DNA of 64,000 bases from Blasia pusilla (lineage: Eukaryota): NCBI GenBank assembly GCA_050084515.1, contig CM114271.1:40672001-40736000 (forward strand), given 5' to 3'. Below are positions 1-45,834 of this stretch, one piece after another. A model generated the notes under the pieces. The model made no database searches. It was not told the origin of the DNA and saw only the letters and a program-made list of their open reading frames with translations. The translations under genes were made by a program, and so were the position numbers. The first letter of the stretch is position 1. Each line of letters starts with the position of its first letter.

Positions 1-797
1 CTTGCTTGGATGTAGCTTCAGCCCATGTAACTGCAATCGTCGAAACACCTCCTCTAGATGTCGCTCATGCTCCTCAACTGTGGCGCTAAACACTATGATA
101 TCATCAATATAACACCTAACAAAATCGAGACCTACCAAGATCCTATCCATGATCCTCTGAAACTCAACCGGGGCGTTCTTTAACACGAATGGTAAGAACC
201 GCCACTCGTACAAACAATCCTTCCTATAAGCATCGATGCCCCAAAATGCCATCTTCTGCATGTCTTCTAATCTGATAGGCAACTGATGGTATCCGGCTCG
301 CAATCCAATGAACTAAAGACCTTTGCATGGCCAATCACATCAAAGATCTCCTCAGGGGTGGATATGGCATACCTATCAGACTTTGTTTGCTGATTGATAG
401 GTCGGTAATCTCCACACATTCGCCTATCCGTCTAGTTGCCATGCACATCCTTCTTGGCAAGCATGATAGTGGCAAATGCATACTCTCCATGCGACATCTC
501 CACTAGTCCTGCTCCAACCAAGTCCAGGCTCCTACTCTAAATCAGAGCCCTCTCCATGTCACTATACTTGTAGGATCGTCGAAAGATCAGAGTGTCACTC
601 GACAACTCAATGCGGATCCCTCGACCATTCAACGTACCCAAATCATGCATACTAAATGCAAAACAGCTCCTATAACTCCTAAGGATCTGGTGTATCCGAC
701 ACCGCTCTCATCCTGTCAACTTAGGGCCCATATCAGGCTCCCAAGTCTCCACCATGACTACGATAGGACTCTCCGGCGTGGATGTCGGTGGTTGCTA
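1..797 (-). mobile_element. Ty3/gypsy family-1 (DNMT-bearing) element, reverse transcriptase part; continues beyond window start
   Basis: Minus strand reads CYIDDIIV...VEEHERHLEEVFRRLQLHGLKLHPSK (RT YxDD). It is homologous to the family-2 RT at 13.8-14.55 kb and joins 24520 onward once the chromovirus is removed. Confidence 0.9.
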
Positions 798-2706: not shown

Positions 2707-2810
2707 TGTCGTGCGAATCCACATCGTCATACAGCATACATCGTTGACATAGCATACTCACATACGTACATAACATAGACGAGAGTATCCACAAATGCAA
2801 GTGTACCACA
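2707..2810 (-). repeat. Terminal repeat B2 (104 bp) of family-2 element
   Basis: Near-identical to 3183-3286; forms the true 3' end next to the TSD. Confidence 0.9.
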
Positions 2811-2812
2811 AC

Positions 2813-3180
2813 TGAAATCCGTGAAAGACCTACTGTCATAAAAAACGTTTACAATCATATACAATCGAGCCAAACCCACTCCACGATGGGAGAATCTAGG
2901 TCGAAGCTTGCGGGAAACACCATAGCCAAGAGCTCTACTCACTACCAAGGCTAACTCCCAACGCAACAGGCTCAACTCAAAGAACTGACTGTTCTTTGAG
3001 TGCACTCCACCTTATATCCTCCAACCTAAGAGCGGGCCCTACTAGGAAACTCACCCCCAACTAAGTAACCCCCAACCCTATGCATGGAACCGCATCTCTA
3101 CCAAGCCACTACGGTCCTACATAAGGAATGGCCTCTACTAGCACACTATACTCTACGACATAATCTGTATGGTCATGACA
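2813..3180 (-). repeat. Repeat A2 (368-bp LTR core) of family-2 element
   Basis: Direct copy of 20168-20535 with about a dozen mismatches by eye; TG...CA ends. Confidence 0.93.
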
Positions 3181-3182
3181 GC

Positions 3183-3286
3183 TGTTGTGCGAATCCACAT
3201 CGTCATACAACATACATCGCTGACATACCATACTCACATACGTACATAACATAGACGAGAGTATCCAAAAATGTAAGTGTACCACA
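3183..3286 (-). repeat. Repeat B1 (104 bp), directly downstream of the polypurine tract
   Basis: Copy of 2707-2810; preceded on the minus strand by TTAGGGGGGCGA-GT (PPT, ~3289-3300). Confidence 0.9.
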
Positions 3287-3461
3287 ACTCGCCCCCCTAA
3301 CTGGCGGTTAGGTCCCTCTAACTCCCAGGTAGCCCTATACATCTACTACATGCTATACACCTTCTTGGGTGCCCGAATCAGAAGGCCGGGTGCTAGGTTG
3401 CCCCATCGTTAGTCGCACATCTATAATCCATATCATGCAAAGATCAAGTCATCTACCTCTC

Positions 3462-4428
3462 CTAAGTACATCGAGGACAAACCCACCTTCTAGTAGGAAC
3501 GACATCCAAACGTGGAGTCAAACACATCATGTGCCAACCCCTAGAACACCGATCACACACCAACATACGGGTTGCGTTACCAGCAGACCCACACGACATG
3601 CACCTCAAGCTAGCACGTATCATGGCTAAGCTTGGATCAACAGTACCATCCACATTTGGAAGATGACATGGCGCACAATTACGCACATGGTCCTTCCAAA
3701 CAACTCCATCACGACCCTCCAACATGAGAACTCCAGAAGCTAACACCTCGCGCACTCGTAAAATAGTGCGGCCTGCCGTCACATCCAACGTTGTCGGTGC
3801 AATCTGCTGCAAATAGACATAGTCCCCCACATGGAACCTACGAATCGATGGTCGATAACCTCCACCCCGAATGGTTGCATACCGCAACGTATCCCTGTGT
3901 TGAGCAATGGCAAGATTCTCAAAGGCTGTTGGCATAACTCTCCGAAAGAGCTCCGCCGGCCCGAGAACACACCCTCATCCACATCTCTGGGTCATCAAGG
4001 TTCACCACCTCACTAGACTCGACGAATTGTTCTTTGGCAAGTCCGGATCTCGGCCGTATAATGTAAAAATAAGGTGAGAAGGAAGCCAAGGATGCTTGGC
4101 GACTGAACCTATACCCCATGGCTAACCATGGCAACTGAATATCCAAGTCTCCAAGATGCCCCTTTTGTAGGCCATACTTGCGCAATGCCCTCTTCACCGT
4201 CTGAACCACACGCTCAGCCAAACCACCCGCCTCTGGATGATCTCGAGACGTGGTCCGATGATCAATCAACGCCTTGTTACACAAGACCTGAAACTCACCC
4301 TGAAACTCTGTACCCTGGTCGGTCAGCACTTTAGCTGGTGCACCAAAATGACTAAGCACTCTATCCAGAAACGCATACGCCGTTCCCTCACTTGCCTTGT
4401 CCGGTAATGCCACCAACTCAATCCACTT
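3462..4428 (-). pseudogene. Family-2 integrase core/C-terminus with terminal PHD finger
   Basis: KWIELVAL...VLTDQGTEF...HPEAGGLAERVVQT (rve DDE), then CMSC...MLVCDRCSRGWHMMCLTP...WVCPRC (C4HC3 PHD). One frameshift near 3920-4050. Confidence 0.92.
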
Positions 4429-4899
4429 CACTAGAAGAAATGTGTGGTTTTTATGACTAGGCTATAAATGACTCACCGAAAGAATGACTCAAATCATGAC
4501 TAAAATGGTTGAGTCATAAAATTTATGTTCATGCAACTCACGTGGTTATCTGCTTATGACTAAAGCAGTTATCAATACCCTTCAGTCAAGACTAGTCGTA
4601 CTTGTTTCACTTGTCTAGTAATACCTAGTCATAAACAACGACTAATGTGCTTAAGTAGTCCATGCTCCATTGTTAAGGGGTTTTTTGTTGTTGTTGGGAT
4701 ATATACCATGCATTTCTTGGCTGTGGGTACCGATGCCCCTCTGGAAAACCATTATTGATTTTTGGACCATATTAAGGGGGGTGGAAAGGTGTTCCGAAAG
4801 AGGAAGATGGCATTGAGTATGAATATTTTAACTCTTGAGGCATTTTCATGTTAACATGCTTTTAACATTCCCTACAACCATTAGATGGTGGTGAAACTT

Positions 4900-6290
4900 G
4901 CCACAAGCCTTGTGATTAAATCCCCCCACAATTTCAACGAGAAGGAGGAGGGGAGAAAATGATGGCTCAAGAAGGAATACGAGGACTTTGACCAATCTTG
5001 TTCTAAGGCGTTGTATCATTTTCGTGGTAACATGGTGATAACTTTTCTTTCTATCATTGCATGTTAATGAATATTTGGCCTCGCCTTGCCAATAAGTTCC
5101 TCCCCATTTTCAAAGGTGCAGATCTGACATGGAAGATCCCATACTAATACCAAAAATCAAAAGCCTTAATTAGGGTTTACGGTTTTTAATTCCATGTGTG
5201 AGTGATCATTTGCACTTTTTTCTTTTGCCATGTATTCCTAGGGTTGGGTTGCTCCCCAGGGAAAAGTATCATGATTTTTGGACTCTTGGCTGAGGAGGAG
5301 GGGAGAAAATGATGGATCAAGAAGAGGACGAGGACTTTGAGTAGTCTCGTTCCAAAGTGTTCTATCATTTTCACGGTAACATGATGAAATCTTTTATTTC
5401 CACCATTGGATGTTGATAAAACTTTGGCAAAGCCTTGCCAATACGTTCTTCCACGTCTTCAACGGTGCAGATCTGCTATTACAGATCCCATACTAATACC
5501 AAAAATCAAAAGCCTTAATTAGGGTTTACGGTTTTTAATTCCATGTGTGAGTGGTCATTTGCACTTTTTTCTTTTGCCATGTATTCCTAGGGTTGGGTTG
5601 CTCCCCAGGGAAAATTATCATGATTTTTGGACTCTTGGCTGAGGAGGAGGGGAGAAAATGATGGATCAAGAAGGAGGACGAGGACTTTGAGTAGTCTCAT
5701 TCCAAAGTGTTCTATCATTTTCACGGTAACATGATGAAATCTTTTATTTCCACCATTGGATGATAAAAATTTGGCAAAGCCTTGCCAATACGTTCTTCCA
5801 CGTCTTCAATGGTGCAGATCTGCTATTACAGATCCCATACTAATACCAAAAATCAAAAGCCTTAATTAGGGTTTACGGTTTTTAATTCCAGGTTTGAGCA
5901 GTCATCTGTAATTTTTTCGTTTCCCCTGTGTTCCTGGGGTGTGGGTGCCCCTATGGGAAAAGTCTCATGATTTTTGGACTCATGGGTGATGGGGAGGGGA
6001 GAAAATGGTGGATCGAGAAGGAAGACGATCGCAAGGACTTCATGTAGTCTTGTTCCAAACCATCTTGTCATTTTCATGGTAACATGGTGATAAATTTTTC
6101 TTTGCACCATTGGATGGTGATGAATATTTTCTTTATCATTTTCATTAAATCGTTCCACATCTTCAACGGTTTAGCTCTGCCATTTAAGACCCCTTATTGG
6201 CGGACACCTCCTTTGGGGTTTTCGATTTTTAAATCTATGTGTGAGTGGTCATTTCAAGTTTTTTCTTTTCCCTTTTGATCCTCGTGCTGG
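4900..6290. repeat. Tandem array of about four ~348-bp units inside the CACTA element
   Basis: GGGAGAAAATG(A/G)TGG recurs at ~4951, 5301, 5650 and 5998; GGTGCAGATCTG recurs at ~5115, 5464 and 5811. The two middle units are near-identical. Confidence 0.88.
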
Positions 6291-7049
6291 GGTGCCCCTC
6301 TGGTCAAAGTTGCGGCACACATGAGGAAAGCGTTCGGATCTATTTGCAAAATGGACGATGCGACAAAACACTAGGGTGCGTATTTTGTACTCCTGATTGT
6401 AACCACGTCAATGTGGCCGATTTGACGTTGAGAGTGAAAACTATATAAGTTTGGTTGCCCATATCTATTGTCAAAGGGCTCTTCTTGTAGTGAGATGGAT
6501 CCTAGGTGGCATTGCTGGTAATATCCTAGGTTGATGTGGCATATTTAGTCCTAGGTGGCTTGCTGCGTCAGAGCGGGCATGGGAGGGAATGGACACCCGT
6601 ATAGCATACAAACGTTTGGTGTTTGGTGCCCAAGTAAGGTGTGTTGTGTTTGGCGGGAGAGAGTGTGCACTCGAGTGGGATGGTCGGAGTTTCTCCAAGA
6701 GTGGGAAGTTCAAAGATTAGGGGATTGGGGAGGTCAGGAGGCTGAGAACAATTTGTTGTGAACGTTGTGAAGACTTTTACGCCTAGACCGCAAGCTCCGA
6801 GTTTGTTCTGAAGACTCTGCTCTCTGAAGATTGTTTCATCTTCTCAGCCGCGGTTAGCTCTCTCTCTCTCTCTGTGCCTTTGCGATGTTCTCTCTCTCTT
6901 TGCGCAACATCTGGAAGAGCCTTGCAAAATGACGTTCAACTTCTTCTCGGACTTCAAAGATCGCTCCTCTCTACAATGTTGTCTTGCTATTGACCCGAGC
7001 ATGTCCGAATAGCTTGGTGGCTCTGAAGGTTGAAACTTCCTACGATGTA

Positions 7050-7439
7050 CCGGTGTTGAAACTAGACCTACACTTTGTCGCACGCGCTCTTCATCTACAA
7101 ACCACTCATCGTTCACTTTGCTGACACTCCAGTTGAAGTATTGCAGGAGAATACTAGCTTCAGTCCTTGACAGGGAAAGGAAATTTGTGATTTTGGTCAT
7201 CGCTTCTTGTCGCTGGCGAATGTCCCTCTCATTGAGAATTGTGTAATTGGACTGAGGAAGCCTAGAACTCACATGAACGTCAAGTAAAGGGAATCATCGA
7301 AACCGTAGTCCGGCTCATCATCGTCATCATCACTGCCCATGGTATTCTCACTCGCCTTGTCATCCTCTTCATTCATATCATAGAAGTCCCCGTCTAATGT
7401 TCCATACCAAGCATCCTGCATTTCATCTTCGGAGTCCAT
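7050..7439 (-). pseudogene. ARI: Captured 5' fragment of an ARIADNE RBR E3 ubiquitin ligase gene
   Basis: MDSEDEMQDA...acidic tract, then a frameshift, then QSNYTILNERDIRQRQ...EASILLQYFNWSVSKVNDEWFVDEERVRQSVGL, typical of plant ARI N-termini. Truncated before RING1. Confidence 0.88.
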
Positions 7440-7626
7440 CGAGAGCGTCGAGAGCGTTTAGGGCGTACGCCAAGGTGTCTCCAATTCTAGGCGGGAAGAA
7501 AGCTTTTCGAATTCGAGTGGAGGTAGTTAGAAAATTTTGGGTGTTGGTGACTCCAAATAGATCTGAAAATCATGGTGTGACTGTTTAGAGTGATACCTTA
7601 GCCAATTATCGTCGATCATGTGGTGT

Positions 7627-7629
<3 letters not shown>

Positions 7630-7675
<46 letters not shown>
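7630..7675 (+). repeat. (GA)n microsatellite
   Basis: About 22 GA units, lying upstream of the ARI fragment as a CT tract on the minus strand. Confidence 0.95.
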
Positions 7676-7677
<2 letters not shown>

Positions 7678-7751
7678 GCAGGTGCCAAGCATTGTAGCCA
7701 GAATCTGTGAAGGAGATCGTTACAAAGTTTGAAGGATTGGGTTGCTGATAT

Positions 7752-8850
7752 TCAGTTCTGTTGCACATCATTGGGTCTTTTGATGAGACTTGTGCTACAA
7801 TGTGCACTTCTTTTCCACGATATAATGTAGAGCCCTAGTGCTAGTAAGACTGAACTGGAGGCTGCATATGGAAGCGTTGGGGATGTGTTTTCTTCTACTT
7901 TGAGGTTTAGAGTGGCTGTGTGCAGGCTGCTCTCCGAAACCTTGGAAGTCCAAAAAGTTGCTTTCAGCTCCCGCAAATTCTCCGTGATACTTAAAGTTGG
8001 AGCTAGCTGCAGGTTGTTACCAACCAAAAATGCATTCTTCAAGTGTTCCTCGAGTTGTACAAACAGAGAATTCTTAGAGTCATGCTTTTCATGAAGTAGT
8101 TGTGTTTGGCTAGTCATCTTGGCAATGTCCTCCCTCAATTGATCAATTTCAACATTTTTTTTCTCCACACTTCCTTGCAAACGGTCAAGCTTTGCATGAA
8201 GTCCTTCTGACTGTTGATAGAGCTCGCAAAATTTATTGACAGTAACTGTGAGCTTGTTGACATCGTTGCCGCGTGAAAGTTATGCTGCCTTCAAAGAAGA
8301 TTGCTTCTCCTCAATGACTTCCTTAAGATTTGCAACGTGCTCAGACAACTCTATTGCGTATTACTGTAACCAGCCATAGATTCCAATTGGGCGTCCAATT
8401 ATGATATTCTCACCTAACTTGACTGTATGTAAGCTTCAGTCTCTTTAGAACGTCCTACCTAAGCAAAAAAAATATTTTCAGCTTTCCCAACTTCTTCTTG
8501 CTTTAGGTGCAAGAGCGCTTCTAGATTGAGGATTTTCTCAGATAGAATCTCAACTTGTTGATGAGCCCCTCTAAGACCAGTCAGTTAAGATTCCAATTCC
8601 ACTATCTGCAACTGGCACTACTGCAACTCATTCTCAGTCTTCTCCAACTTTAATGCCAAGATTAAGTGCGATTCCTTCTCAGCCTCTATCCTACTTTGGG
8701 CATTCCTCAACTCCGTACTAAGCTGCATGGAAGTCGCCATCAAAACTTTGGCATCTTGACCAGCTAGGATTGCCTTATTCTGGGCATCAACCACCTCTGA
8801 AACCAACCACTCAACTTTCTCCAATTATGATATTCTCACCTAACTTACAG
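7752..8850 (-). pseudogene. Captured fragment of an unidentified long coiled-coil protein gene
   Basis: Heptad-like E/K/Q/L-rich frames (ORFs 8618-8824 and 7752-8180) interrupted by stops. Confidence 0.55.
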
Positions 8851-8929
8851 CACTTGGTTTCACAAGTAGATGAATCAAGTATATTTAAAGTAGTTTTTTT
8901 GTACTGTTTACATGTTCACAGCGATTCAG

Positions 8930-11311
8930 ATCGTTCGTTGGGGGGTACTACATGATGTGGTTGATGACACAGGTCGAGATCTGAAGAATGTGAGGGAGCA
9001 CTTTGGTGATGATGTGGCGAGACTAGTGGATGGTGTGTCAAAGTTAAGTCATATCAACCAGGTATGTCCCAACCTTGTTCATGCCTATTTCTGATAAGAG
9101 TTGGTGATTTGAAAGGTTTTTCTGAATACAAATTATAGGTCAAGTCCAACAGACATGCAAGGTCCTGTCCAGGAAAGAAGGCTTGCTGCAGATATATCTA
9201 GCAAGTGGAGGGATTAATGAAGATGTGAACAGGAAAGCAGAATCTTCAAATGTTTTTTGTAGCTCTGTAGGGCGGCGGGCTTTGCTGATTGTACAATCCT
9301 CGTATTTTGAACAAAATGAATAGAAAAGAATTCAGTGATCAACTGCAAATGTGGCTAATAGGTAGGGATCTCATACAAATCATAGTAGGTATAGAGGGCA
9401 AGGGGGTTCAAGTCAAGGAATATTCAACTGGTTTCCAAACTCTGATTGGTATGATGGTTTAAGCTTCATTCTCAGGACCTGTCTATCAAAGTGAGGAAAT
9501 GGAAATCCTTTGAACAGTCCGATGAGTTGGAAGAGCCGAGTTGGAGGGGCAAACGTGGTTCAAATAGACTTGTTATTAAGTAGTCGGTTCCATTCGCTAA
9601 ATTTCAAGCCCAACATCACCTTTTTCAAATAAAGTCGCCATTTGTTCTCCTTAAAATAATTCCCCATGTGAATTCATATGTTTCATAAGAGGAAATTTTG
9701 GGTCTATATTTGGGTATTGATTTACTATCTGGTACTCACTGCAACTTTTGAGGAGGCACGGAAGGATAACAGCTTGTCAAAATTCAACAGAGGCCGGTGG
9801 TTTGAGTCCAGCAGAGGTAAGTGCACCTTGTCCCCGTGAAGTAATGACTCTGTTTTGTGTGTCATCTCTTCATTTAGTATACAAGTCATGAGTAGACTTG
9901 TAAAGAACTTAAGACTTTCCCACTAGGGGAATGCTTTTTCGTTCCTCGGCCGACGGGTAACATTTTATCAAGATTTTTTTCAGGGTTTACTCTAATAGAT
10001 GGTCAAGAGTTAGCTGTTTAACTTTGGAGTCCAAAATAGACTTATCTCTTGGAGTTATGACAACCTCTAAACAGTGTAGCCTTGGTTATTTACTTGGCAA
10101 CCAGGTGGACAGTTTGCGCGTTATGCTACTGGGTAACATCAATGATCCTCGTGTGGTCCTCATCAAACTGGCCAATCGTCTACACAACATACGAACAATG
10201 TAAGTATCAGTAGAGGAAGTCTGGTTCAAAGTTCCCTCTTGATTTCAAACCAGCAAAAGCTCACTACTTTGGCAAACTTTTTACATACTATGAAGTACAT
10301 ATTCATGTCAAAGGACTTTCTTGGAGGATATCATGATGCTGATGGTCTTGATTGCATTCTGTGTGTAGTTATGCTCTCCCACCATCGAAAGCATATGTCA
10401 GAGCACAAGAAACTTTGGCGCTTGGTGCTCACCGGCATCAAGGCTTGGTGTGTGGGCGTGAAGGCGAGCTAGAAGATCTCTGTTTTCTTTGTCTTGCAAG
10501 TATGTCCCAAATTCTATTTCAGATGACTTTTCAGGTTCCCCACGGATGTCTTCTTGTCACACTTTGATGCGTGGGGGGTAGTCGGTGGGTGGTAACTAAT
10601 TCTAGTTATCACTAGTTTACGAGTTATGATGTATTGTTCTTTACTGGAGGCCCTCTCATAATGTGCCTCCAACCTGCGGTGCTAGCCCAAAAACTTTTGG
10701 AGACTACGAGCCGCACTAGCCGCCATATGGAGTCCACACAAAGACTGGAGGTATTTAAGGAGAATGACCAAAAGAGCTAAACGAAGAGCACTACTCTATG
10801 GTGATCTGGTGCAAGAGGAATTGGAACCCAAACCGGATCGAAGATGAGGAAGAGTTGACAATGAAGGTGTGCATATCTCCCATAGCCTTGCAAAGTAAAA
10901 GATGAAGGTGTTTTTTCAGAACAGAACACCTTTAACTACATTTTGTCATCGGGTTGAAGGTACTTGGGTCGTGCAATATTCATGGTGTCGATCTGTGGGG
11001 ATTGCATCCAGATCATTTCAGATCATATGTTACTTATTCTCATTGCCCACCTTTGATGCTGAACTGAGAGAAAGCTGGTGTACTTACATGTTGATTGGTG
11101 ATCAACAATAATGCAAGATCTTCTTGAAGCAGTTGTGCCATTTGATATATTATTAGATCGTAACAGGCGCAGTGCTAGACTTGGTTCCCCTGGAAATCCA
11201 GGAGAGATAAGTAAGAAGAAAACAAAGGTGATACGGGATGCTGAAGTTGCCCTTGCTACTTTGGGTGCCTATGAGGATGCTCTTGACAAGGAGCTTCTTA
11301 TTTCAACCTCG
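8930..11311 (+). pseudogene. RSH: Captured multi-exon fragment of a plant RelA/SpoT homolog (HD hydrolase region), with introns
   Basis: Exons ending in GT donors: GVLHDVVDDT...VDGVSKLSHINQ (to 9061); ~9745-9816; VDSLRVMLLG..DPRVVLIKLANRLHNIRT (~10105-10199); YALPPSKA...ELEDLCF (~10369-10499); DLLEAVVPFDILLDR...ELLISTS (to 11311). Confidence 0.88.
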
Positions 11312-12446
11312 TAAGTCCTCTATTCATAGTGTCAAGGGACATGAGCTCCATTGTCCAGATACAAGAGAAAGATGTTGCATGTGGCAGTGGTTGGCTGAAT
11401 CTTAACGTGAAGAGAGCATCTTTCGGCTTTTAAGCCAAGAAGTTGTGCAAACATCGCACGAAGTATCAGGGAGCTCCTTGATTATTTTACTATGAACAAA
11501 ATTGGAATGAAGGGATCTTCCTAAGAAGGAATGTTTCCGCACATGACTAAACCAAAAGAACTGACCGCTCAAACTTCCCTGTGATCCATGTGCTCAAACC
11601 TCTGCCTCCAACTATTATATATAAATAGTTTGGAAAAGAGGATTTCAATAATTCAAATCCACTAATTCTTGCACCGTTCAAAAGGCATAATATACATTCC
11701 AAAGTATCCAAAATTTATTTTCCCACTAGTCATATCGATATAATTAGCACAATACGATTCAAAAACTGAAGTAGTAAGCTTTTCAAGTTCTCTCTAGTCA
11801 TAATTGTATGACTCATGCAGTTCTGTTGCAATGACTACATCATTTCCGCAACTTGCATAGTCATATCTTTGTGACTAAACCAGTTGTGTCCGCTTCTATA
11901 GTAGTCATGTAACTCTACTCTTCTAGTCATAGTACATGACTACATGAGTCCATACCAACATTTCAATAAAATAAAATGACTACATGAGTTGTCAACTATA
12001 ACTGAATGGAGTATATTTTGGTGCATTTTGATAGGATATTCTGAACTTTTGCACACCAACCATGACTAAAGGAGTCGTTGGTGGTAACTAGAAAAATATA
12101 CACATATGACTAGATGAGTCGTACTCAAGTCCACATCATCATTGACATGTCACAACAATAGTCCATGTCATCAGTGACACATCATACTAAATAGTCCATG
12201 TCACTGATGATGTGTGATTATTCCACGTCATCTTAGTGACATGTCAATCATGGCCTCATGACTACACCCTCGAGTCATATACCAACCTCCACCTAAGCTG
12301 ACTATCCTAGTTAGCCTAGTCGCCAAACAAATATGACTTGGCTTTTGTGTCTAAAGTAGTCGTCAGTCATTGTTAGTCGTGGTATCTAAAGTATGACTCA
12401 TATGAGTCATATAACCTAGTCATAAAACCAGGGATTTCTTCTAGTG

Positions 12447-14560
12447 CTTGGAGAAGTGCTCCACCATCACCAACACATATCGATGATGTCGTACAGTCAA
12501 CGGTAATGATCCCGCAAAGTCCACACTCCAACGGTAACCCAACCCCATAATAGGCAAGGGGTGTAATTGTGGTGTAGGGACATTAAATGATGCCCTCACC
12601 CGGTCACAAACCATACAACGTGACACCAATCTGCCTGCACCGAGTATGCATGCCACGCCACCAATATCGCCAAGGAGTAAGCTATACGTACGCTTTACCC
12701 CAAAATATCCCAACTCCTCATGGGCATGTCGCACAATGCGCTCTCTCTGAGCCAAATGTGGCACTACTCGTACTCTACCATCCTCCCACACGCGGAGAAT
12801 ATGTGTTCCCTCCATTCGATACCTCTTAGCACGTTGAAGAACACGGTCTCGCTCCTTGGCACTCACTATGCTTGGCACCCTACTGGTCCGTAGGAACTCC
12901 AACACCAACGCATCATCATGAATATCACGCTGATCCACCACCATCTCCAACCTTAGGATCTCAAGGCTGGCCATCTACCCCTCGACTAGAGTAAGATATC
13001 ATGTGGTCCTCCATACTAGAGTCCACCCTAACCAACATAAAAAGGCGGATGCATGCCAACCGACACCATCTCCTCATCAACCTCGCCATGCCATCTAGCC
13101 CCGATTGTATCCTCTTGGCTAGTACATGGGTTCCTACTCAATCCATCAAGATCAAGGTTGGCAACTCCAGGTCTATGTACCACCCGGAAGTCATACTCTG
13201 TAAGATAAGAGCCCACCGTGCAAGCTTCCTGTAAGCTTCTCCGACTCCATCAACCACTTGAGCGGTGGTGATCAGTAACAAGGGTAAACGTGTGCCAAAC
13301 AAGTAACACCTAAAGTGTGCCCACCCTCACACACCTCTTGCCAAGCACTCTCCCTCATATGAACTATAGCGACTCCATTTGCATTATTCGAACGACTTGC
13401 ATAGGCCACCACAAACTCCATGTGCTCATCATCATGTTGTGTCAACACCGCTCCAAGTCCCAACCTACTCCAATCGTGTGTAATCTGAAATGGGCGCCCC
13501 CGATAGGTCTCCTCAAGATAGGCGCCGCCACCAACTGGGCCTTAAGCTCCACAAAAGCTCTCTCCTGATCATCTCCCTAGTGCCACTCTTGATCTGATTT
13601 CAGCAATTGGTTCAAAGGCTTTGCCATAGCACTAAATCCCTTCACATACCTCCCATAGTAGTTCGCCAATCCCATGAATGCTCGAACTCTACTCACATCT
13701 ACCGGACGCGGAATAAGTGCAATAGCCTCCACCTTTGCTTGCTGAACTCCCAAACCACCTGGATAGATCACATGACCCAAGTACTCAACATCCTCATGGA
13801 AGAACTTACACTTTCATGGATGCAAACGTAGACCATGAGTTTTCAACCGCTCAAACACCATCTGCAAATGTATCTGATGCTCCTCCACCGTGTTACTGGA
13901 CACCAAGATATCATCAATGTAACACCGAACAAAATCCAACCCTGCTAGGATCCTGTCCATCACTCTTTGAAACTCGGCAAGTGCATTCTTCAACCCAAAG
14001 GTTAAGAATTTCCACCGGTACAAAAATCCTTGCCATGAGAGTTGACACCCCAAAATCTTTGTCTTGGCCTTGTCACTCTCCCCAATCGGCAATTGATGGT
14101 ATCTCGCCGAAGATCCAAAGTACTGAAAATCTTTGCTTGTCCCACCACATCAAAGATCTCTCAGTGTAGGCATGGCATACCTATCGGCCTTGGTTTGCCG
14201 ATTGATAGGACGGTAATCTCCACACATCCGCCTATCCGTAGTTGCCATGCATATCCTTTTTAGCAGGCATGACAAAGTGGGCGATGCATACTCTCCATGG
14301 GACAACTCCACTAATCCAGCCTCCAAAAGGTCCAACGTCCTACTCAATCAGGTCCCTCTCCATATCACTATATCGGTAGGGACGACGGAAGATTGGCGTA
14401 TCACTAGCCAAATCAATCCGTATACGGGTCCAACCAGAGAACCCAACTCCTTCATGCTAAAGGCAAAACAACTCCTATAAGCACGTAGGAACGTGTCAGC
14501 GTCGTTTCTCACCTCCCGTAAGCTTGGGCCCAAGTAATGGCTCCCAAGTCTCCTCCACTG
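12447..14560 (-). pseudogene. Family-2 RT, RNase H and integrase N-terminus (frameshifted)
   Basis: MCGDYRPIN; FGLKNA; FVRCYIDDILV; VRAFMGLANYY; GLGAVL...VVAYASRS; EYDFRVVHRPG; HAHEELG...CMVC zinc finger; RWSVDFAG. Confidence 0.92.
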
Positions 14561-14839
14561 GCATACTAGAGGGAGAGGACGATGCCATTGGCTGCTACCC
14601 AACCCCCTCACAAGATGATACACCCTTAGCTACACCATCATCTCGAGCAAATAACTCCTCCACCAAAGATGAGCAACCAACTCCACATGCCCGACCATTA
14701 CATCCCATTTACTCCAAGGATGCAAAATACTACTCTCCTCGCCTGACCAATGCCTCTACCGTCCCGGTAGCCATCGAGCTCATTACAAGGGGTGGAAGAC
14801 CCAAAGACATAGTCCGAAGTCGACACTGCTCGGCCATAC

Positions 14840-15800
14840 CAAGACTCAAAATCCAAGTCAAACAATTCAGGTCCATGGCCTGACCCAACACATGACGTCG
14901 TGAAGCCTCAGAAATAGAAGCAAGCAACCGCCACGCCGAGTAGTAAATCCCATCGCACGCTCTCTCTCATCGGCGTTAGGCTCCACCAACGCCGCACATG
15001 AGAATCCCATACAAGCCCCGGACCACCTTCCCTGTAGGCATGTGACGCGGGAAAACTCACAAATGTGGGTAGTGCCATCCTAGGCTGGCCCACACGATTC
15101 ACCACTGCCATGGGTGACCGATCAATAACCCTCACCACTTGAGAAAGTCGCCAAGATATCAAGATACTATCCACTGTAAGGCGAGGATCCCGCCAGACCT
15201 TTGCATCATATGCTCGACGTAGAACCTCCCTAGGCAACAAGTTTGTCCACCACAAGCGTGGGCGATGTGCACGTGAGCCAACTCATGGTTTGCATCCAAC
15301 AACACCGCTGGTCCAATCCAAGACCGCACCTCATGAACACTCGCCATCATCCGGTCCGAGTGTCACCCAACAATGGAACATTCTCGAATGTAAGCTAGAG
15401 CACACGTGCGATGAACTGAAGATTCGTAACACCCGTAACATCTCCCAAAACAATCGAGACCTAGGGTCATGTAATCCCTCACCACGACCAAAGACGTGTA
15501 TGACCACGACATGGCCATCCAAAGCAATCACCAAATCCACAGGACCAATTCTCTCAAGGTCCCTGCGCTTCAACAATGCAATGTGTGATGGTAAAGCACG
15601 CTGGTACCCACGAATAGCGATAGCGGCAACAACTCAGGATATCTCGCATCAATCGACCAATATGTCGGGATGAGACTCTGGGCCATCTCATCTCACTCCA
15701 CATACACGTATCTCCGACAGAATACCGGCCTGCAACACTGCGGACCAAACCAAGTGCTAATCCCACCAAAGAGATCTAACACACAAATGCCCTCCGGCGG
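14840..15800 (-). pseudogene. DNMT3-like C5 cytosine methyltransferase domain within family-2 Pol
   Basis: Motif I VLDLFGG (~15763-15783); IV GWPC (15509-15520) followed by GLHDPRSRLFWEMLR; VI ENV (15377-15385); VIII GSRAHRPRLWWTN (~15241-15280); IX/X ERERAMGF...SRRHVLGQAMDL. Motifs lie in several frames because of indels. Confidence 0.88.
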
Positions 15801-16189
15801 ATCTTTGCCATACAATGGGTGTAGTATCCAAAGGGATAACAATCGGGCTGTAGTAGGAGTCCGCCGTGGGGCCTCCTCTTCCTCGTGAGGTATATGACCT
15901 CACACCAAGCCTCTTGCACTAGGCGTCGCCTCTGCCGTAGTGCACCGCTGAACTCCAAAGTGGCACATCCAACGATGAGGATGCCTTTGCTGCAAAAATG
16001 GGGACCTCCTCTACATCCTCATGCGCAGGAGAATCCATAGCGAGAAACATTACCCTCCAAAAAGTCTCTGGCCAAGTGACTACTCCACTAAAACCGACCC
16101 CCAGATGCTAACACTTTGTTGGGGAAGACCCTCTGGTCGAGCCCCAGGAAATAAATCTCACAGAACTTGGCTCATACGTCCATCCCCGG

Positions 16190-16600
16190 ACTGCCAACCT
16201 GGTCTATAAGACGTTGTCTCAGTCCGAGAATCCATCTGAAAACCCATCGGGTACAACATCGCTCCTCCAACTAGTACATCATACGACTCGGTGATGTCAC
16301 TACCGCAGATACTCCCAACCGGGAGCTATCATCGCATGATCTGGTCTCAACTGCATGTAAAACTTCTCCGTGTCATGAATTGAGACCTATCATTGGCTCC
16401 TCCAAGTGATGTTTGAATCGGAATGGGCAAGGCTCAAGCTCGACCTCCGAATACCCAAACCAATACATGCCGCCTTTCCCAACATCAAGGTTGGGCACCG
16501 AGTCTAACAAGACTCTATCTGGTCTATACACATCTGTAGGACTCACCAATCGAAAGATCCCACTCCGGTTGTCCAACATACATACACCAGGTGTAAGCCT
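16190..16600 (-). pseudogene. Family-2 aspartic protease
   Basis: RPDRVLLDS(G) active-site motif and ESYDVLVGG; the family-1 counterpart reads VLLDSGAQPLMLG. Confidence 0.75.
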
Positions 16601-17149
16601 CTCACGATCAATGGTGGCCGGGTGGTAATGCATCCATCTTCGCCATTTCTTTGCCCGCCAAGTAGCACCGGTACTCAATGCTACTCTCGACATAGAGGAT
16701 CGCTCCACCGCAACACCCTCATCCACCTCAACACGTGTAGTTGTAACACCCCACGTTCACACAACGTGGTCGCTAATCAAATACAAGAGGTAAGTCAACT
16801 CCTAAAGCCATCGACTCCGTGGCCGAAAACAATGGGGATCCTAACACCGAAGTTGCCATCCGCAATCTTGCATTGGATGTTGCATCCGTGTCTACTACAC
16901 GCGATGTAGATGCCCTCGATCTCCACTGTCGGCTCAATAGGTCGCGTGAGGAACCATGGATGGAGTCCTAAGCACCTCGGACAACAAGAATGACTGGGAA
17001 GCCTAGCCGCCTCCCGGCCTCACCCCTCTGTGGGTCCAACTCCACAAGAGCACCACGTGGCTCGACGCTCGAGTGGCTCTCAGAATCTGCGGTGATGCCT
17101 CAACCTATGCCGCACTCGCCATATAAGAGAGATCATCCCCTCCATAAGA

Positions 17150-18628
17150 GGTGGAAGCCCCTGCTCCCGAACGATCTATCTTTGGATACCACCATAGTAG
17201 CCAACTCGCTCCAATCGCTCAATCTGGCACCATAGTCGACTCTGTCGTAGTGGTAGGGGTAGCCACCATAGGCTCTCCAACCATTGGTCCACCTCTACCA
17301 CCCCTACCACCTCTACCACCTCGGCCTCTTGGAGCTACTCCACCACGGCCACGGCCTGATCTCAACTCGGATGAAGATCAAAGCAACGCTCTCGAGGATG
17401 ACCTAGTCTCCCGCAATGATCACACTGTGAGTTGGGGCCGATCGAGGCCCATCCTCCAAAGTCCGTCTCCCATCCTCTTGGGGACAAAACTTCCTAACAT
17501 GATCACCTCCACATGTCCAACATGATCGTCCTGCTCTGGGGCAGCAAATGAAGGCAATGGTCTCTACACAAATATCCCTCTAGGACTTGGCGAGGTCGCG
17601 TGTACCCCACGACTCCCACTCCTACTACCACCACCACTACTACGAGGCGTGAGGTGGGCGGTGAACAGAGAAGTAGTAGTTGTATCCCCCATGAATGCGG
17701 ATGTCACCACTCTCTCCTTCACCATGTTAAGCTCAATCTTCTCGAGATAGAGCAAACACATGGGTCAATGTGGGTGAATCATCACTCATAAGAGTAGCAT
17801 CACGCACCCTACGGCGCAAATCTCTGTCCAAGATCCCATACCAAAACTGGACGCCTGATCCTCAATCACACCTGGTAATCGAAATCAAGCGTCGCATACG
17901 CGTGTATGCCTCACGAAGACTCTCACCGGTCTTTCGCTCAAAGTCTTGAAGATTCCTCAACTTCTCCGTCTTCACTCCTTGATAGTTCTTCTTCAACCTC
18001 TTGAAGAACTCGCAATCAAGGCTAACGATGGTGGGGCACTAGTACCTCCACTAGTACCCCCACTAGTACCTCCACTGGTACCCCCACTCCGGCTCGTACT
18101 CGTACCACTCAACGTCGGGCTGGCTGGCATAGTAGGAGCACTACTACCAATACCACCATGGGTGATAGACACATAGCCTGGAGACCAATATTGTCTCCAC
18201 GCCTCAATCTCAGCAACATGGTCTTTCCCAAACTCATGGTAATTATCCATGGGTGGTCCTTCCAAGTGCTGAAACAACCCCTTCCAAGCCAAGAAGGGTG
18301 TAAACAACGTGACGTTCCGCAACATCTGCATAACACACCACTTATCAAACTCCTGCATGAAGTCCTCCAACTCAATGGTGCCCACTGCACCCGAGTATCG
18401 TCGTGGGCCCTTCATGGCCCCATATCCACCGTCCATGTCCCAAATCAATGGAGCTGCAACACTCAATAACAACGTAGAAGACTCGGTGTTTGGAACACCC
18501 TTGTCCTCCTCTTCATCAACCGTCGGAAGTGGAAAAGGTAGCCGATACCTAAATCCACTCCGTGTGAAACCACCACTGTCCGCACCACGGTCCCCAACCA
18601 GACCACCCGACTGCCCCGTGATGACCAA
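17150..18628 (-). pseudogene. Family-2 gag with zinc-knuckle remnants
   Basis: GPRRYSGAVGTIELEDFMQEFDKW...FQHLEGPPMD, homologous to family-1 gag at 28174-28434; ESLREAYTR; RG-rich linker; SGGT tandem repeat at ~18040-18085. Confidence 0.8.
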
Positions 18629-20155
18629 CGCCGATGCCGCACCACCACCAAATTACCACCACCAAATTACCAAGTGACGTCGATGTCGCTATACTATTCT
18701 AGCTCTACTAGCTATGGGTGTAGGCAACCTAACTTGTCATCACCACAAGAAGTCTCCCACACTCTACTCGTCATCCCTCCAGCCTCACTACCGGTAGCAC
18801 ACAAGAGTAACACTACTCTGGAAATCAACGTCAACCCTAACAATGGGCGCGCAAGCAAGAAGCACGATGGAGGGATCCAAACACAGAAATCAACGACAAC
18901 CCTCCAATCGCAAATGGAAATCAAGGTAACACAATCCACCAAACGTGGTGCCCCTCGAATCCACAAAACCCACCACACAACTCTAACGCAATAGCTACTC
19001 GCGCCGGGTCGATGACGTGCTAGTCGAACTCGCAAAGACCTGAAAATATCACCTGCATGGAGAGGCTACATCGTACTATGCGCTAGAGGTACATCAACCA
19101 AAAACTTGAGATGCATAAAGCGCCTAACACATCTCGAACAAAGACCAAATGAGCTACAACAAATGTACACTAGCATAGTTAAGAACTCAGAGATTAAGCG
19201 TCCTCAGCGAGAATAGCCCAAAGATGGGTGACCAGTTATGCAAAAATCAAATCCCAAATCCTGCAAAAATTGCCTCACGCCCAAGCAAGCAAGCTTGCTT
19301 GCTTGCTCCTTGCTCCTTGCTCCTTACTCCGCCTCTCACGCCCACTCGCCCCGAGCTACCACGAGTTGCCTCGAAGCCTCGAAGCCTCGAAACGCCGAGA
19401 AATGCTCGAGACATGCCCCTATCGTCACGCTTCGCCATGATTCGCCATGATTCGCTATGGAGAGAGGTCCAACCAGGGCGCCCCCAACGGGATAGGCGTC
19501 TCCAACAATGAACGAGTCACCAACCAACCAGACCCTCCGATCCGCTGTCCACCATAGCCAGACCTTGAGCTAGTCCGCGAAATTTCGATCAGAAATTACT
19601 TCACAAATACGTGACCGAAATCAAATCTGTTTCAATCAGAATTCAATTGACCACCATAGCTATCTCCCCACAAAAACTCAGCTACAACCGAGCTCCGTAC
19701 TCCGAGCTAAAAATCGGACAAACTTGCTGTCCATACACCTCTAGAACCGCAAACCGGCAGCCGCTTCCGCCAAGTTTCATGCACGCAGAAATCAACGCTC
19801 CACGCACTCGGCGAGATAGCTTCACATGAGATCACAGTACAAGTAGCAATAGGAACCTCTCACCCGATCTGGATGAACTTCAACAAAGCTTCCGCACTCC
19901 AAGCTCTCCACATCAGAAAACTGTCCAACACGAACCAGAATCTTCAATGCTTGATAACTTCCAACTACCTTGACGAAATCCGGCTATCTACTACGCGTTG
20001 GAAAGCTCTCAGCAAGGCGCTTCTTTCCCAACCAACCACGCACCTGATTCACACCTCCAACATAGGCAACAAACCGCGAACATCCACGGCTGAGTACACA
20101 ATCAGCCCTAACCAGATCCTACTCATCTACAATCGAATCTACCATCGATCTACTC

Positions 20156-20167
20156 CAGTTCTTTGAG
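20156..20167 (-). promoter_or_regulatory. Putative self-priming PBS of family-2 element
   Basis: CTCAAAGAACTG abuts the 5' repeat A and is the exact reverse complement of the minus-strand sequence at 20342-20331, about 30 nt downstream of TATAA. Confidence 0.8.
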
Positions 20168-20535
20168 TGAAATCCGTGAAAGACCTACTGTCCAAAAACA
20201 CGTTTACAATCACATAAAATTGAGCCAAACCCACTCCACGATGGGAGAATCTAGGTCGAAGCTTGCGGGAAACACCATAGCCAAGAGCTCTACTCACTAC
20301 CAAGGCTAACTCCCAACGCAACAGGCTCAACTCAAAGAACTGACTGTTCTTTGAGTGCACTCCACCTTATATCCTCCAACCTAAGAGCGGGCCCTACTGG
20401 GAAACTCACCCCCAACTGAGTAACCCCCAACCCTATGTATGGAACCGCATATCTACCAAGCCACTACGGTCCTACATAAGGAATGGCCTCTACTAGCACA
20501 CTATACTCTACGACATAATCCGTATGGTCATGACA
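20168..20535 (-). repeat. Repeat A1 (5' LTR core) of family-2 element
   Basis: TGTCATGACC...GGATTTCA; TATAA at 20371-20367; copy at 2813-3180. Confidence 0.93.
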
Positions 20536-20539
20536 ACAT

Positions 20540-24519: not shown

Positions 24520-24799
24520 CTATGATGCAATCCCGTCTCGGATAATAGAACTCTCATCTCCATGTGCAGTACCCGGAACCACGCTCGATGCTGTGGCTAT
24601 CATCTCAAGAAGTCCAAGGGTGTACCTGCAAAACATCCCAAGAAGTCCAAGGGTGTCTTTCTCGATCACCCTTGGTATGTCAATCTCCTCAAGTCTCGCC
24701 CCCATCGGCTAACTCAATTGCCTCGGTAGGCATGGGGCTCACCAACACAACAACTGTGATCTATTGCGTCTTCAAACGACGCTGCTCAACTATTCCTAA

Positions 24800-25760
24800 C
24801 CTGAAAATCCATGTCAAGCACTTCAGATCGATTGCCTGAGCCAAGATATGACGTCGTGATGCCTCTGATAGTGACGGTACTGCCGTCACTCTTGTGGGGA
24901 ATCCCATCACTCGCTCTCACTCATCGACATTGGGCTCCACCAACCTCTATACTTGGTCATCCCAAACCAAGCTAGGTCCGGCCTCCTTGAATGCATAGGA
25001 AGCAAGAAAACTCAGCCGTGTGGGAAAGGCTGCCCGTGGCCTGCCAATTCTGTTGATCACAGTCAACGGCGGTCGATCATCTAGCCTCACTGCCTGGGAT
25101 CGACGGCCTAGATCCAATATAGAATCCACCAACAAATCGGAGGGGCGCTCTACTCTTGCATATGCCCTCCGTAACACCTTGTGTGGTACCAAGATGGTCC
25201 ACCAAAGATGTGGGCGATGTGCTCGTGAACCCCCACTCGCCGCATCTAACAACACTATCGGGCCGATCCATGTGCCTCATGTGCACTCGTCACCACGCGG
25301 GACCTCGAATTGCCCAAAATTGGCACATTCTCCAAAATGTATGGTGGAGAACGAGGCTGATGCTCCTGTAAATGTCGCAAGATCCGCATCATCTCCCAAA
25401 ACAACATGGACCGAGTGTCAACTAACCCGCTACCTCGTCCAACACTCGATTGGCCCTAACACGGCCAACCAGCAATGACCAAGTCTATGGTCCCTACCTG
25501 CTCCAAGTCCTACGCCCCCAACAATGAAATGTCCCTTGGTAGGGAACTTTGGTAATCCTGAATGGCGGACGCAGACAAAAAGTCAGGAAAATGAAGGCGT
25601 AATAGCACCACATGGTGAAGTGAAGCGCGCCATGCAACATCATCAATCTCCACATACAGGTATTGCTGCACACGCACTCCAGTGTGCAAAAACGGCTAAC
25701 CCAATGTTGATCCCTCCAAAGAGATCCAACACCCGAATACCCTTCTCTGGGATGCACCAC
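24800..25760 (-). pseudogene. DNMT3-like C5 cytosine methyltransferase domain within family-1 Pol
   Basis: KGIRVLDLFGGINIG (I); IDLVIAGWPC*G (IV, 25459-25470); ILENVP (VI, 25324-25332); LLDAASGGSRAHRPHLWWT (VIII); ERVMGFPT...SRRHILAQAIDL (IX/X). Confidence 0.9.
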
Positions 25761-28700: not shown

Positions 28701-30127
28701 CCCTCAATCACTCAACCTAAACATGCGGCACTCAATCTACACTCTCTCACCGAGATATGTGTTGTGCGGCAACAAGCAGCGTGGTACGGAAAATCAACCG
28801 ATCTATCGTCTCATCGACAAACCATCCTCAACTTTGGACATCCCACATAGGTCTATGTCCCCTAAACCCATACGTCATCGATGCTCCTAGCATCAGCATA
28901 AAATCCAATATCCCAAATAACTTCCCAATATCCAGAAACCCCTCATCGTGCAGGGTAAGAGACCAGAATGGGTAATCTGACAACAATGTCGATGTCGCTC
29001 CTCGGCAACCGCAAATCTCGACCCCAACTCGGTCGTGAAGATAACTCCTCCAATCAGCAAGTCGTACTCCTCTCGTACTGACGCTGCTCAAACCTCCTCA
29101 ATGTGCGGTGCAGATCCAGCGGTCCGGTGTGGCATTGTCGGCAAGGAATGACTACAAACCGCATGGCACTCGGGAATGGGGTGCGGCACTCGGAGGCATA
29201 CCCTCCTCAATCAGCAATTCACACGCTCTGCTCCTTAGTGAAGGAGCGGTTCCGCGATCAAGACAGTGCGGTGTGGCCACGAGCGGCACGTTGCAGCTAC
29301 GGGCGTCACGGCATGGTACTCGATCATCATCGAGCGGCTACCAATCCCAACATAGGAACATGAAATGAAACCTCAAACACCATAACCCGATGTCACCTGC
29401 CATCATAGGTTCATGACAAAACTACGATGACGGTGGCGGCCAAACCAAAATACGTGGTGGCCGCGTAAGTCAGAGAATCAATGGTGGTCATGGAAGACTC
29501 TCCACTCCGTAATGGCGGCAATGGCAACCAAAGGGTGGACAATGGCCGAACGCGGCTCTGAGCAGCGCTAGGCAGCTGGTTTAGGGTTTGAACAATTTAA
29601 CCCTAAAAATCACCTAGCATGGCATTTTTGCAAGATTGACCATAACTTTTTTCTCGCAACTCCAAATTGTGCATCATTAGTTGCATAGCGTGTACAGCTT
29701 CATGATCTACGAGAGTGTTAAAAAAAATATTTGAATCGGAAATTCCAGTAAAAATAGACAGGAACTGTCGTAAAGTCCAATGTCTCTTTCTCCTACACAA
29801 AATTCAGCAGCGCCTCCGCGCTGATTTCTCCCAACGAAAATGTAAAACATACGAGAACACAAAACAACAAGCTACATGGTACTCCCAAGAGCACCGGCAT
29901 GGTGCAACCCGCTCCCATACTCAATCCCTATCAAAAATTGGGCAGCACTTCCACGCGCCACTCTTCCACACGAAAAATCGGAAAAAGAAACATCACAAAT
30001 AAGCGGCTCTTGCTTTGGTGAGCACTCCCATGAACCGCTGAACAGGGAATACAATCCCCAACCTACAAAACCAGCGAGTGACTAGCGAACTCCCCCATGA
30101 AGCTCTCTCACTCACTCATTCTCTCTT

Positions 30128-30469
30128 TGTAAAATAAGATCTAATCTCTCTCACAACACCATAGTTCTCACATGTGTGCACTCTCATATGTCTCTCTCAA
30201 TGTCAAACCAAACCCATTCTCCTAATGAGAAGTTTGGGTTAGACACACAAGGCAAGCAAGACCATAGCTCCGCCGCCTCGTGCTAAGAGGTTCAACAAAG
30301 AGAGAATGAGCTCTCAAGCTCTCTCTCCTTGAGGTGTACCCCTCCCCTCTCCCAAGCTCTCTCCATGGTAACCTATGCTCCCAAGTTACCTCCTTGGCTC
30401 TTGACCTCATATAGGAGGTCAAGGGTCACGTACCAAAAATAGAAAGTCAATCATATACTCAAAATGACA
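30128..30469 (-). repeat. Repeat A1 (5' LTR core) of family-1 element
   Basis: TGTCATTTTG...TTTTACA on the minus strand; a homologous inverted copy lies at 30653-30669 + 31973-32296. Confidence 0.85.
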
Positions 30470-45780: not shown

Positions 45781-45834
45781 ATAATCAGGTCCAAATATTC
45801 TAAGAATGGGTAGAAACTCACCAAGATGGTTCAA

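Follow-up and report, generated by a model that had tools for sequence, protein, structure and literature searches.

Retrotransposons that carry their own DNA methyltransferase (DNMT) have previously been reported from dinoflagellates and from one charophyte alga. The main text of the latter report describes KnitGypsy-Dnmt3 of Klebsormidium nitens as an element with Gypsy domains, a Dnmt3 in Pol, and DIRS-type repeats in the order A-coding-B-A-B, and it states that retrotransposon DNMTs perform de novo CG methylation (de Mendoza et al. 2018, Nat Commun 9:1341, PMC5890265). A 2026 preprint lists "streptophytes (Gypsy-DNMT3)" citing de Mendoza et al. only, and the accessible text of the REXdb survey (Neumann et al. 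2019, PMC6317226) mentions neither a DNMT nor a PHD finger. Here, we describe a Ty3/gypsy long terminal repeat (LTR) retrotransposon on the minus strand (20535..2707) of a 64,000-nucleotide (nt) stretch of the Blasia pusilla genome (contig CM114271.1 of assembly GCA_050084515.1, positions 40,672,001 to 40,736,000; hereafter, the window). In our assessment it is quite likely a decayed copy of a bryophyte LTR retrotransposon lineage of the same kind as KnitGypsy-Dnmt3, and elements of this kind would then be found in bryophytes as well.

An earlier note on this DNA, made from the sequence alone, had proposed a coherent lineage that combines a DNMT, a PHD-tipped integrase, self-priming, and split terminal repeats, each trait having precedent only separately. 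The last point did not hold, and the note overstated the novelty, because the core combination is already in print for an alga in the text of PMC5890265. What is new is the bryophyte distribution of the lineage, its abundance, its transcription, an integrase tipped by a PHD finger, a conserved pairing for self-priming, and the junction anatomy with target site duplications (TSDs). A literature search, which left subscription journals and supplements largely uncovered, found no report of such an element from a land plant.

Anatomy and ends of the element

Once a nested CACTA DNA transposon (4429-12446) and its duplicated CTT are subtracted, the element (family 1) measures 9,808 bp, in line with the TSD-bounded element of ~9.8 kb that had been described before. 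It reads, in order, A1, primer binding site (PBS), gag, protease (PR), DNMT, reverse transcriptase (RT), RNase H (RH), integrase (INT), PHD finger, polypurine tract (PPT), B1, GC, A2, and B2, where A is a long and B a short repeat (Table 1). The polyprotein order is gag-PR-DNMT-RT-RH-INT-PHD, and the succession of RT, RNase H, and DDE integrase on the minus strand is that of a gypsy-type pol. Every copy in the window is dead, with many stops and frameshifts, and the open reading frames (ORFs) of the region are fragmentary and lie on both strands. Family 1 is additionally broken by the CACTA, which inserted within the integrase and thereby split it.

Pfam was run on single ORFs and on frames with stops read as X, covering 40 window translations and 18 relatives. 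RVT_1 matched at 8.4e-23 (13073-14491, minus strand). Two integrase models gave matches below their cut-offs, rve at 1.5e-7 and 32.1 bits versus a cut-off of 32.6 (3922-4461) and Integrase_H2C2 at 3e-4 and 21 bits versus 25.5 (12447-12932). RNase H was placed by a tblastn match to residues 959 to 1139 of the related protein P0165, whose RT_RNaseH domain lies at 997 to 1098. The gag region was covered by tblastn with the Marchantia relatives P0163, P0164, and P0170 over residues 1 to 472, at up to 78% identity at the N terminus. No Pfam model matched the family 1 gag, PR, or DNMT frames; the zinc knuckles and the DSG motif are known by eye and from homology, and in the aligned relatives the protease motif reads LLDSGAQPLMLGK.

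The ends were checked with two DNA runs (X1 and X6) and two RNA runs (X22 and X23) of the source organism, aligned to positions 2600-20600. A joint from 2701 to 20535 was present in 5 contigs of X1, 1 contig of X6, 159 RNA reads of X22, and 142 RNA reads of X23. It skips 17,833 bases, which are the 17,829 of the element plus 4 for one ATGT; this tetranucleotide stands on both sides of family 1 as a 4-bp target duplication. These joints are paralogous empty sites of the older element that the family 1 copy entered, and because they occur in two DNA and two RNA runs, the element ends and the 4-bp TSD are established independently of the window. In a second joint, 4425 is followed by 12447, so that 8,021 bases, the CACTA together with CTT, are missing; it was found in 9 contigs of X1, 1 contig of X6, and 65 and 61 reads of the RNA runs; it represents sister copies without the CACTA.

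Split-repeat layout across copies

A total of 75 metagenome loci were recovered with a DNMT alignment, and 36 sequences with A or B matches were compared; in the metagenome loci, the A and B repeats have 75 to 80% DNA identity to those of family 1. A B-A-B 3' end was seen in 10 loci, namely, the window and nine metagenome loci (L015, L026, L030, L036, L045, L057, L061, L064, and L067), while L002 is cut by its contig end. Self-comparison recovered both repeat pairs, and with them the whole A-int-B-A-B (int, the interior), in 7 of the 10 (the window, L026, L030, L057, L061, L064, and L067). L061 and L064, which are 97% identical with their flanks included, represent a single locus.

The PPT (AGGGGGGCGA or near) adjoins B at 16 of the 20 printed starts of B1 or of a single B, other sequence standing there in L012, L027, L040, and L050, and the end of A (TTTCA) adjoins the PBS. 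The spacer between B1 and A2 is exactly 2 nt in all 11 junctions (among the 7 printed, GC in 4, AT in 2, and TC in 1), and the palindrome around it is ACA-GC-TGT or ACA-AT-TGT. A2 directly adjoins B2 in 9 of 10 junctions; the joint in L026 (10837-10858) has 20 extra bases that repeat the end of A and the last letters of the PPT. This 20-nt filler resembles the filler seen at imprecise end joints.

Perfect 4-bp TSDs flank 8 of the 11 independent full-length copies (ATGT, CATA, AAGG, TCTC, AATC, TTCA, TACA, and TGTG, the last requiring a reading of a mutated first TG), and the other three (L030, L018, and L012) agree at 3 of 4 bases. No NCGN pattern was seen in the eight perfect TSDs; the available text of PMC6317226 gives NCGN as the target preference of Phygy, which together with Selgy belongs to the REXdb non-chromovirus lineages, known from moss and Selaginella.

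A second family in the window shares with family 1 the position of the DNMT, the TGTCAT end, and a self-complementary primer site. It shows an A1 without B at the 5' end of its main copy and an A-B at a solo remnant. Of the repeats of family 2, the window shows only these two, the A1 of the main copy and the solo A-B, and the B1-A2 junction lies outside the window. With two window families that share the layout, colinear gene models in Marchantia, Calypogeia, and Sphagnum, and 10 loci with B-A-B, the proposed lineage is coherent and not an accident of a single copy.

Candidate self-priming, transcription, and abundance

In family 1, A1 is followed by 12 nt that are exactly complementary to A positions 194 to 205; the primer stretch in A forms one arm (3') of a small hairpin, and the other arm (5') is a repeat of the PBS. 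The corresponding stretch of family 2, 13 nt of unrelated sequence, is complementary to A from position 160 onward, and L056 and L057 have 16 nt of complementarity between PBS and A. Across 17 metagenome A1 copies, complementarity of at least 8 nt was present in 9 (in L020 at an odd position). The pairing is kept while the sequence changes between families, which argues for function. Both this complementarity and the PHD finger at the integrase end (see below), as claimed from the sequence alone, have proved real.

RNA depth over the element was 13 to 190 with the first mate on the plus strand versus 0 to 9 for the other strand, which in usual stranded libraries corresponds to minus-strand RNA, the sense of the element. 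Most of the RNA reads are 90 to 99% alike and so derive from sister copies. RNA reads of X23 (109 and 52) match the body up to the PPT (3289-3292) and then enter a family 2-type B, so that relatives in which a family 2-like B follows the PPT directly are expressed. Summed contig depth over the element, which is not a copy number, was 2,000 to 5,600 in X6 and 25,000 to 124,000 in X1, and in the CACTA interior it was ~8 to 30 in X6 and 3 to 17 in X1. The family is high-copy and transcribed in the source organism. Separately, five RNA fragment ends at 2827 (X23), 14 nt before the end of A2, could mark a polyadenylation site and are too few to interpret. Neither a 5' nor a 3' transcript end could be read from the RNA alignments.

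A proposed route of integration and its alternatives

Family 1 has TG..CA ends, with A starting TGTCAT and B2 ending GACA, and 4-bp TSDs, features that mark the work of a DDE integrase rather than a tyrosine recombinase. With the start of B at the PPT and the end of A at the PBS, ordinary reverse transcription would produce a B-NN-A unit at each end, NN being the 2-nt spacer. We propose that reverse transcription would be self-primed as in Tf1, the sequence after A1 pairing within A; that the A2|B2 junction would be the end-to-end joint of two B-NN-A units; and that the integrase may act inside the B-NN-A unit, at the palindromic site formed by the end of B, NN, and the start of A. A 2-nt staggered cut at ACA-NN-TGT would leave the recessed CA ends used by integrases, and the inserted copy would be a permuted provirus composed of part-LTR, body, whole LTR, and part-LTR. 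In vitro, the integrases of foamy viruses and HIV are able to cleave palindromic junctions between two LTRs. Judged by its junctions, the element may have its integrase attachment site inside the LTR, and the non-standard integration route suggested in the earlier note would fit their anatomy.

Two routes could lead to such a copy. An LTR-LTR circle might be opened at the PBS-side palindrome, or a linear complementary DNA (cDNA) might have its ends filled out through template switching on B1-A2, a mechanism put forward for DIRS-like elements. We lean mildly away from the circle as the integration substrate, a real possibility all the same, and give the remainder to linear cDNA completed on B1-A2. 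Random cutting of a circle would be expected to leave A-B-A-int-B copies as well, and their absence speaks against it. Taken to its furthest, this reading would be of a widespread, still-transcribed bryophyte gypsy lineage whose DDE integrase would cut ACA-NN-TGT inside the LTR on an LTR-LTR intermediate, rather than acting at reverse-transcription ends, with a Dnmt3-type DNMT and a histone-reading PHD finger that would mark and choose landing sites. It is tentative, and we think it somewhat unlikely. If it is true, a DIRS-like split-repeat provirus would be a normal integrase product. The junction anatomy offers a concrete, testable account of DIRS-like split repeats in a DDE-integrase element, a point left open by the published description.

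The alternative that survives best keeps the layout as described and derives the inserted form from linear cDNA by template switching on B1-A2, in the manner of a DIRS-like splint, with the integrase on ordinary ends and no circle. It explains why only A-int-B-A-B is seen, A-B-A-int-B occurring in 0 of the 36 sequences, and DIRS-1 is reported to amplify via linear single-stranded cDNA (PMC7192593). However, by itself it predicts neither the exact coincidence of the B start with the PPT and of the A end with the PBS nor the flush A2|B2 joint and the L026 filler with its PPT-end letters, all of which look like joined standard reverse-transcription ends. We regard it as possible though doubtful.

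Several observations weigh against parts of the account given here. A circle cut at either internal site should yield some copies of the form A-B-A-int-B, and the 36 sequences held none. Twelve metagenome loci end in a single B (A-int-B), a sign that the contig evidence is imperfect; because L013 (B only) and the homologous L045 (B-A-B) have flanks that are 95 to 96% alike, single-B forms are probably due to B1/B2 deletion or to collapse in short-read assembly. Single-B contigs were also considered as products of one-LTR circles, a candidate rejected because the shared flanks of L013 and L045 make deletion or collapse likelier. In the priming step, 8 of the 17 metagenome A1 copies lack an exact complement of at least 7 nt, all of them decayed; neither RNA run showed a cluster of RNA ends at the predicted start, 20342; and 26 fragment ends at 20374, seen in X22 only, lie upstream of that start inside A and are too few to interpret. 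No intact DNA-level copy was found, and the 10 metagenome elements examined held no ORF longer than 545 amino acids (aa). Finally, no Klebsormidium protein was among the 64 matches of one protein search or in the other protein searches, so that kinship with KnitGypsy-Dnmt3 is drawn from shared architecture only.

Two further alternatives are given very little weight. The order A1-int-B1-A2-B2 is the arrangement called typical of DIRS elements in the legend of Fig. 1e of PMC5890265, as would suit a DIRS/Ngaro/PAT-type element integrating by a tyrosine recombinase, yet Pfam matched no tyrosine recombinase in any of the sequences scanned (40 window translations and 18 relatives), and rve and Integrase_H2C2 matches, TG..CA ends, and 4-bp TSDs are found instead; we consider this very improbable. 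That the element is an ordinary LTR retrotransposon whose extra B arose by accident (local tandem duplication, a truncated neighbor copy, or misassembly) is scarcely credible, for although B1-A2-B2 can be parsed as a 476-bp tandem unit present in 1.2 copies and a 4-bp TSD in one copy alone is weak evidence, the layout and junction rules recur in nine metagenome loci, TSDs are perfect in most of the independent copies, the A at the 5' end of family 2 lacks a B and its solo shows A-B, and the empty-site joints put the ends at the start of A and the end of B.

DNA methyltransferase and PHD finger

The family 1 DNMT (~15839..14748) was recognized by eye from motif I (LDLFGGIST), a frameshifted motif IV, ENV, and RAHRPRLWWTN, and a frameshift around the PCQ motif leaves it without its own Pfam match. 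Its longest single frame (P0001, 14911-15633, with two stops read as X) matched 374 proteins of a representative protein library at E ≤ 1e-3 and 89 at E ≤ 1e-10. In a word-indexed search it matched 26 longer proteins, which include models from Marchantia, Calypogeia, and Sphagnum and the best of which, at 3.5e-59, are PF00145-bearing Marchantia proteins. The family 2 DNMT matched PF00145 directly (6e-11, 42.8 bits versus a cut-off of 22; 25276-25689, minus strand). It has a stop after AGWPC, where relatives have Gln, and an intact ILENVP; a 109-aa family 2 fragment found no homologous proteins in the protein search.

Across 10 aligned relatives, DNMT motifs I, IV, VI, VIII, and X are nearly invariant and in normal order (LFGGISTG, AGWPCQG, ILENVP, and RAHRPRLWWTN). 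The best solved matches of the Marchantia relative P0163 were DNMT3A/3B/3C at 1.7e-8, HaeIII at 1e-3, and plant DRM at 2.6e-3, and the window DNMT is assigned to Dnmt3 on the basis of the DNMT3A/3B/3C match of this relative; the window's own DNMT piece had no match in PDB. Judged by its motifs, the element's DNMT is a predicted non-rearranged, Dnmt3-like cytosine-5 methyltransferase within the polyprotein. It might instead be foreign to the polyprotein, a fragment of a host DNMT3 or a separate insertion trapped in some copies, as the broken DNMT frames in the window and the lack of a Pfam match in family 1 could suggest. Against this stand single uninterrupted ORFs in public data (P0165 with PR-DNMT-RT-RH; P0159 and P0057 with gag-PR-DNMT-RT-RH-INT), the same position of the DNMT in two window families that are 75% identical at the nucleotide level, and the near invariance of the catalytic motifs across the 10 relatives, and we give a foreign origin almost no credence.

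The PHD finger matched Pfam at 2.3e-10 at the end of ORF 3465-3974. The integrase end and PHD region (4067-3459) is 71% identical by tblastn to Marchantia Mp_7g09570 (P0186) over 212 aa. No Chromo domain was matched by Pfam in ORF 3465-3974 or in P0186, P0022, or P0114, which have a PHD finger instead; its presence at the place that a chromodomain takes in chromoviruses adds another example of integrases exchanging one chromatin reader for another. Among solved PHD fingers, the nearest belong to CHD4, PHF12, ATXR5, KDM5B, and PHF21A, most of which read unmodified H3K4. From these likenesses, the PHD finger probably guides the element's integration through recognition of histone H3 tails, and the DNMT of intact copies probably methylates the element's new DNA or its surroundings.

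Relatives and distribution

Named relatives comprise at least 18 Marchantia polymorpha gene models annotated as hypothetical (e.g., Mp_4g09160, Mp_8g17980, Mp_2g26090, and MARPO_0091s0058) and proteins, likewise annotated as hypothetical, of Calypogeia fissa, Sphagnum fallax, and S. troendelagicum. In tblastn, both window families aligned colinearly with the models from Marchantia, Calypogeia, and Sphagnum through gag, PR, DNMT, RT, RH, and the start of the integrase, at 40 to 58% identity to the family 1 DNMT, 53 to 58% to the family 1 RT, and 70 to 75% to the family 2 RT. MARPO_0091s0058 has DNMT, RT, and RNase H within one ORF, and Mp_7g09570 has the integrase end with a PHD finger. Some "DNMT3-like" gene models of these plants are transposon genes, which affects methyltransferase gene counts and the interpretation of methylomes.

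Among metagenomic proteins, P0159 is a 2,327-aa ORF that encodes zf-CCHC, protease, DNMT, RT, RNase H, and integrase and aligns colinearly with the window, at ~35% identity, on both sides of the CACTA gap. The order differs in others: P0022 and P0114 are polyproteins with RT-RH-DNMT-INT-PHD, P0051 has DNMT-PR-RT-RH-INT, and P0011, of 1,775 aa, has its DNMT at the C terminus and is otherwise without a Pfam match. These different places within the polyprotein indicate that the DNMT module moved or was captured more than once. A PHD domain was present in 20 of the 64 matches of one protein search.

Feature coordinates and neighboring elements

Table 1. Coordinates, within the window, of the family 1 element, the CACTA nested in it, and family 2
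Feature	Position	Strand	Remarks
A1, 5' terminal repeat, 368 bp	20168..20535	-	Starts TGTCAT, ends TTTCA; 97.0% identical to A2; outer end confirmed by empty-site joint
PBS	20156..20167	-	Immediately 3' of A1; complementary to A itself; candidate for Tf1-like self-priming
Candidate self-primer, A positions 194-205 within A1	20331..20342	-	Exact 12-nt complement of PBS; 3' arm of short hairpin
gag, degenerate	16949..18436	-	Two CCHC knuckles by eye in translation; tblastn with Marchantia P0163, P0164, P0170
Aspartic protease region, DSG mutated	16128..16729	-	tblastn colinearity with P0165, P0171, P0178
Putative Dnmt3-like C5 DNA methyltransferase domain	14748..15839	-	Frameshifted around motif IV; in-frame stops
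RT and RNase H	13073..14491	-	RVT_1; tblastn for RNase H
Integrase N-terminal zinc-binding part, cut by CACTA	12447..12932	-	Integrase_H2C2 below cut-off; tblastn
Nested CACTA DNA transposon, foreign to the retroelement	4429..12446		TIR, TSD
Integrase core and C-terminal region	3465..4461	-	rve just below cut-off; PHD finger ~3468-3602, stop directly after
PPT, AGGGGGGCGA	3289..3298	-	Adjoins B1 directly
B1, internal copy of short repeat (B, 106-107 bp)	3183..3288	-	94.4% identical to B2
2-nt spacer GC between end of B1 and start of A2	3181..3182	-	Center of palindrome ACAGCTGT
A2, 3' copy of long repeat, 368 bp	2813..3180	-	Self-comparison
B2, terminal short repeat	2707..2812	-	Ends GACA; adjoins A2 with no spacer; right end confirmed by empty-site joint
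Family 2, 5' part	24520..30469	-	A1 30469..30128, PBS 30127..30115, then gag, PR; DNMT ~25885..24632
Family 2 continuation (RT), leaves window	1..797	-	75% nt identity to family 1 RT; 70-75% aa identity to Marchantia and Sphagnum RT
Family 2 solo A-B remnant, 5' end of A diverged or truncated	31968..32420	+	91% identical to family 2 A1; B-like tail ends ATGACA

The CACTA insert is 8,018 bp long, with a 47-bp terminal inverted repeat (TIR) at 85% identity and the TSD CTT, and it holds 349-bp subterminal tandem repeats (4943-6308). Spliced transcripts of it occur in both RNA runs, first mate on the minus strand, with introns at 7341-7924 (GT..AG), 9062-9744, and 10867-11116, and its transposase gene appears to be expressed somewhere in the genome.

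Family 1 is hosted by an outer LTR retrotransposon (799-24519) that itself interrupts family 2. The outer element has 353-bp LTRs that are 94.6% identical, a tRNA-type PBS (TGGTATCATAGC) after the 5' LTR, and no clear TSD. It contains a 365-bp inverted repeat (1486-1850 versus 22168-21808, 93%), and an internal inversion is suggested by its RT-like pieces, which lie on the minus strand (1850-2347), and its RH/INT-like pieces, which lie on the plus strand (22155-23414). Elsewhere in the window are a partial copy of the LTR of this outer element (45827-46019, ~85% identical) and an inverted pair of ~400 bp at 76% identity (33336-33730 and 61071-61473).

Comparison with known systems

With DIRS/Ngaro/PAT elements, the Blasia element shares split direct repeats of the form A1-int-B1-A2-B2 and an internal B1-A2 junction that mirrors joined ends; it differs from them in having a DDE integrase (rve and H2C2), TG..CA ends, 4-bp TSDs, a PBS, and a PPT. 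DIRS-like elements are not known to duplicate their target site on insertion. The metagenomic gypsy polyproteins P0022 and P0114 carry the same DNMT family (30 to 45% identity) and a PHD finger at the integrase end, but their DNMT lies between RNase H and integrase, whereas here it lies between protease and RT. Tf1/sushi and the plant Tcn1 chromoviruses, so far as the available text of PMC6317226 describes them, likewise have a PBS complementary to a sequence inside their own LTR rather than to a tRNA and a chromatin reader at the integrase C terminus; unlike them, the present element has a PHD finger in place of a chromodomain, a DNMT, and split terminal repeats. For KnitGypsy-Dnmt3, the main text of PMC5890265 does not take up a PHD finger (the term occurs 0 times), self-priming, TSDs, or the junction anatomy, some of which its figures or supplements may show, and the host is a charophyte alga as opposed to the bryophyte-like host here. 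Set against that same text, the Blasia element has in common with KnitGypsy-Dnmt3 the Gypsy domain set, a non-rearranged, predicted Dnmt3-type DNMT inside Pol, and repeats in the order A-coding-B-A-B.

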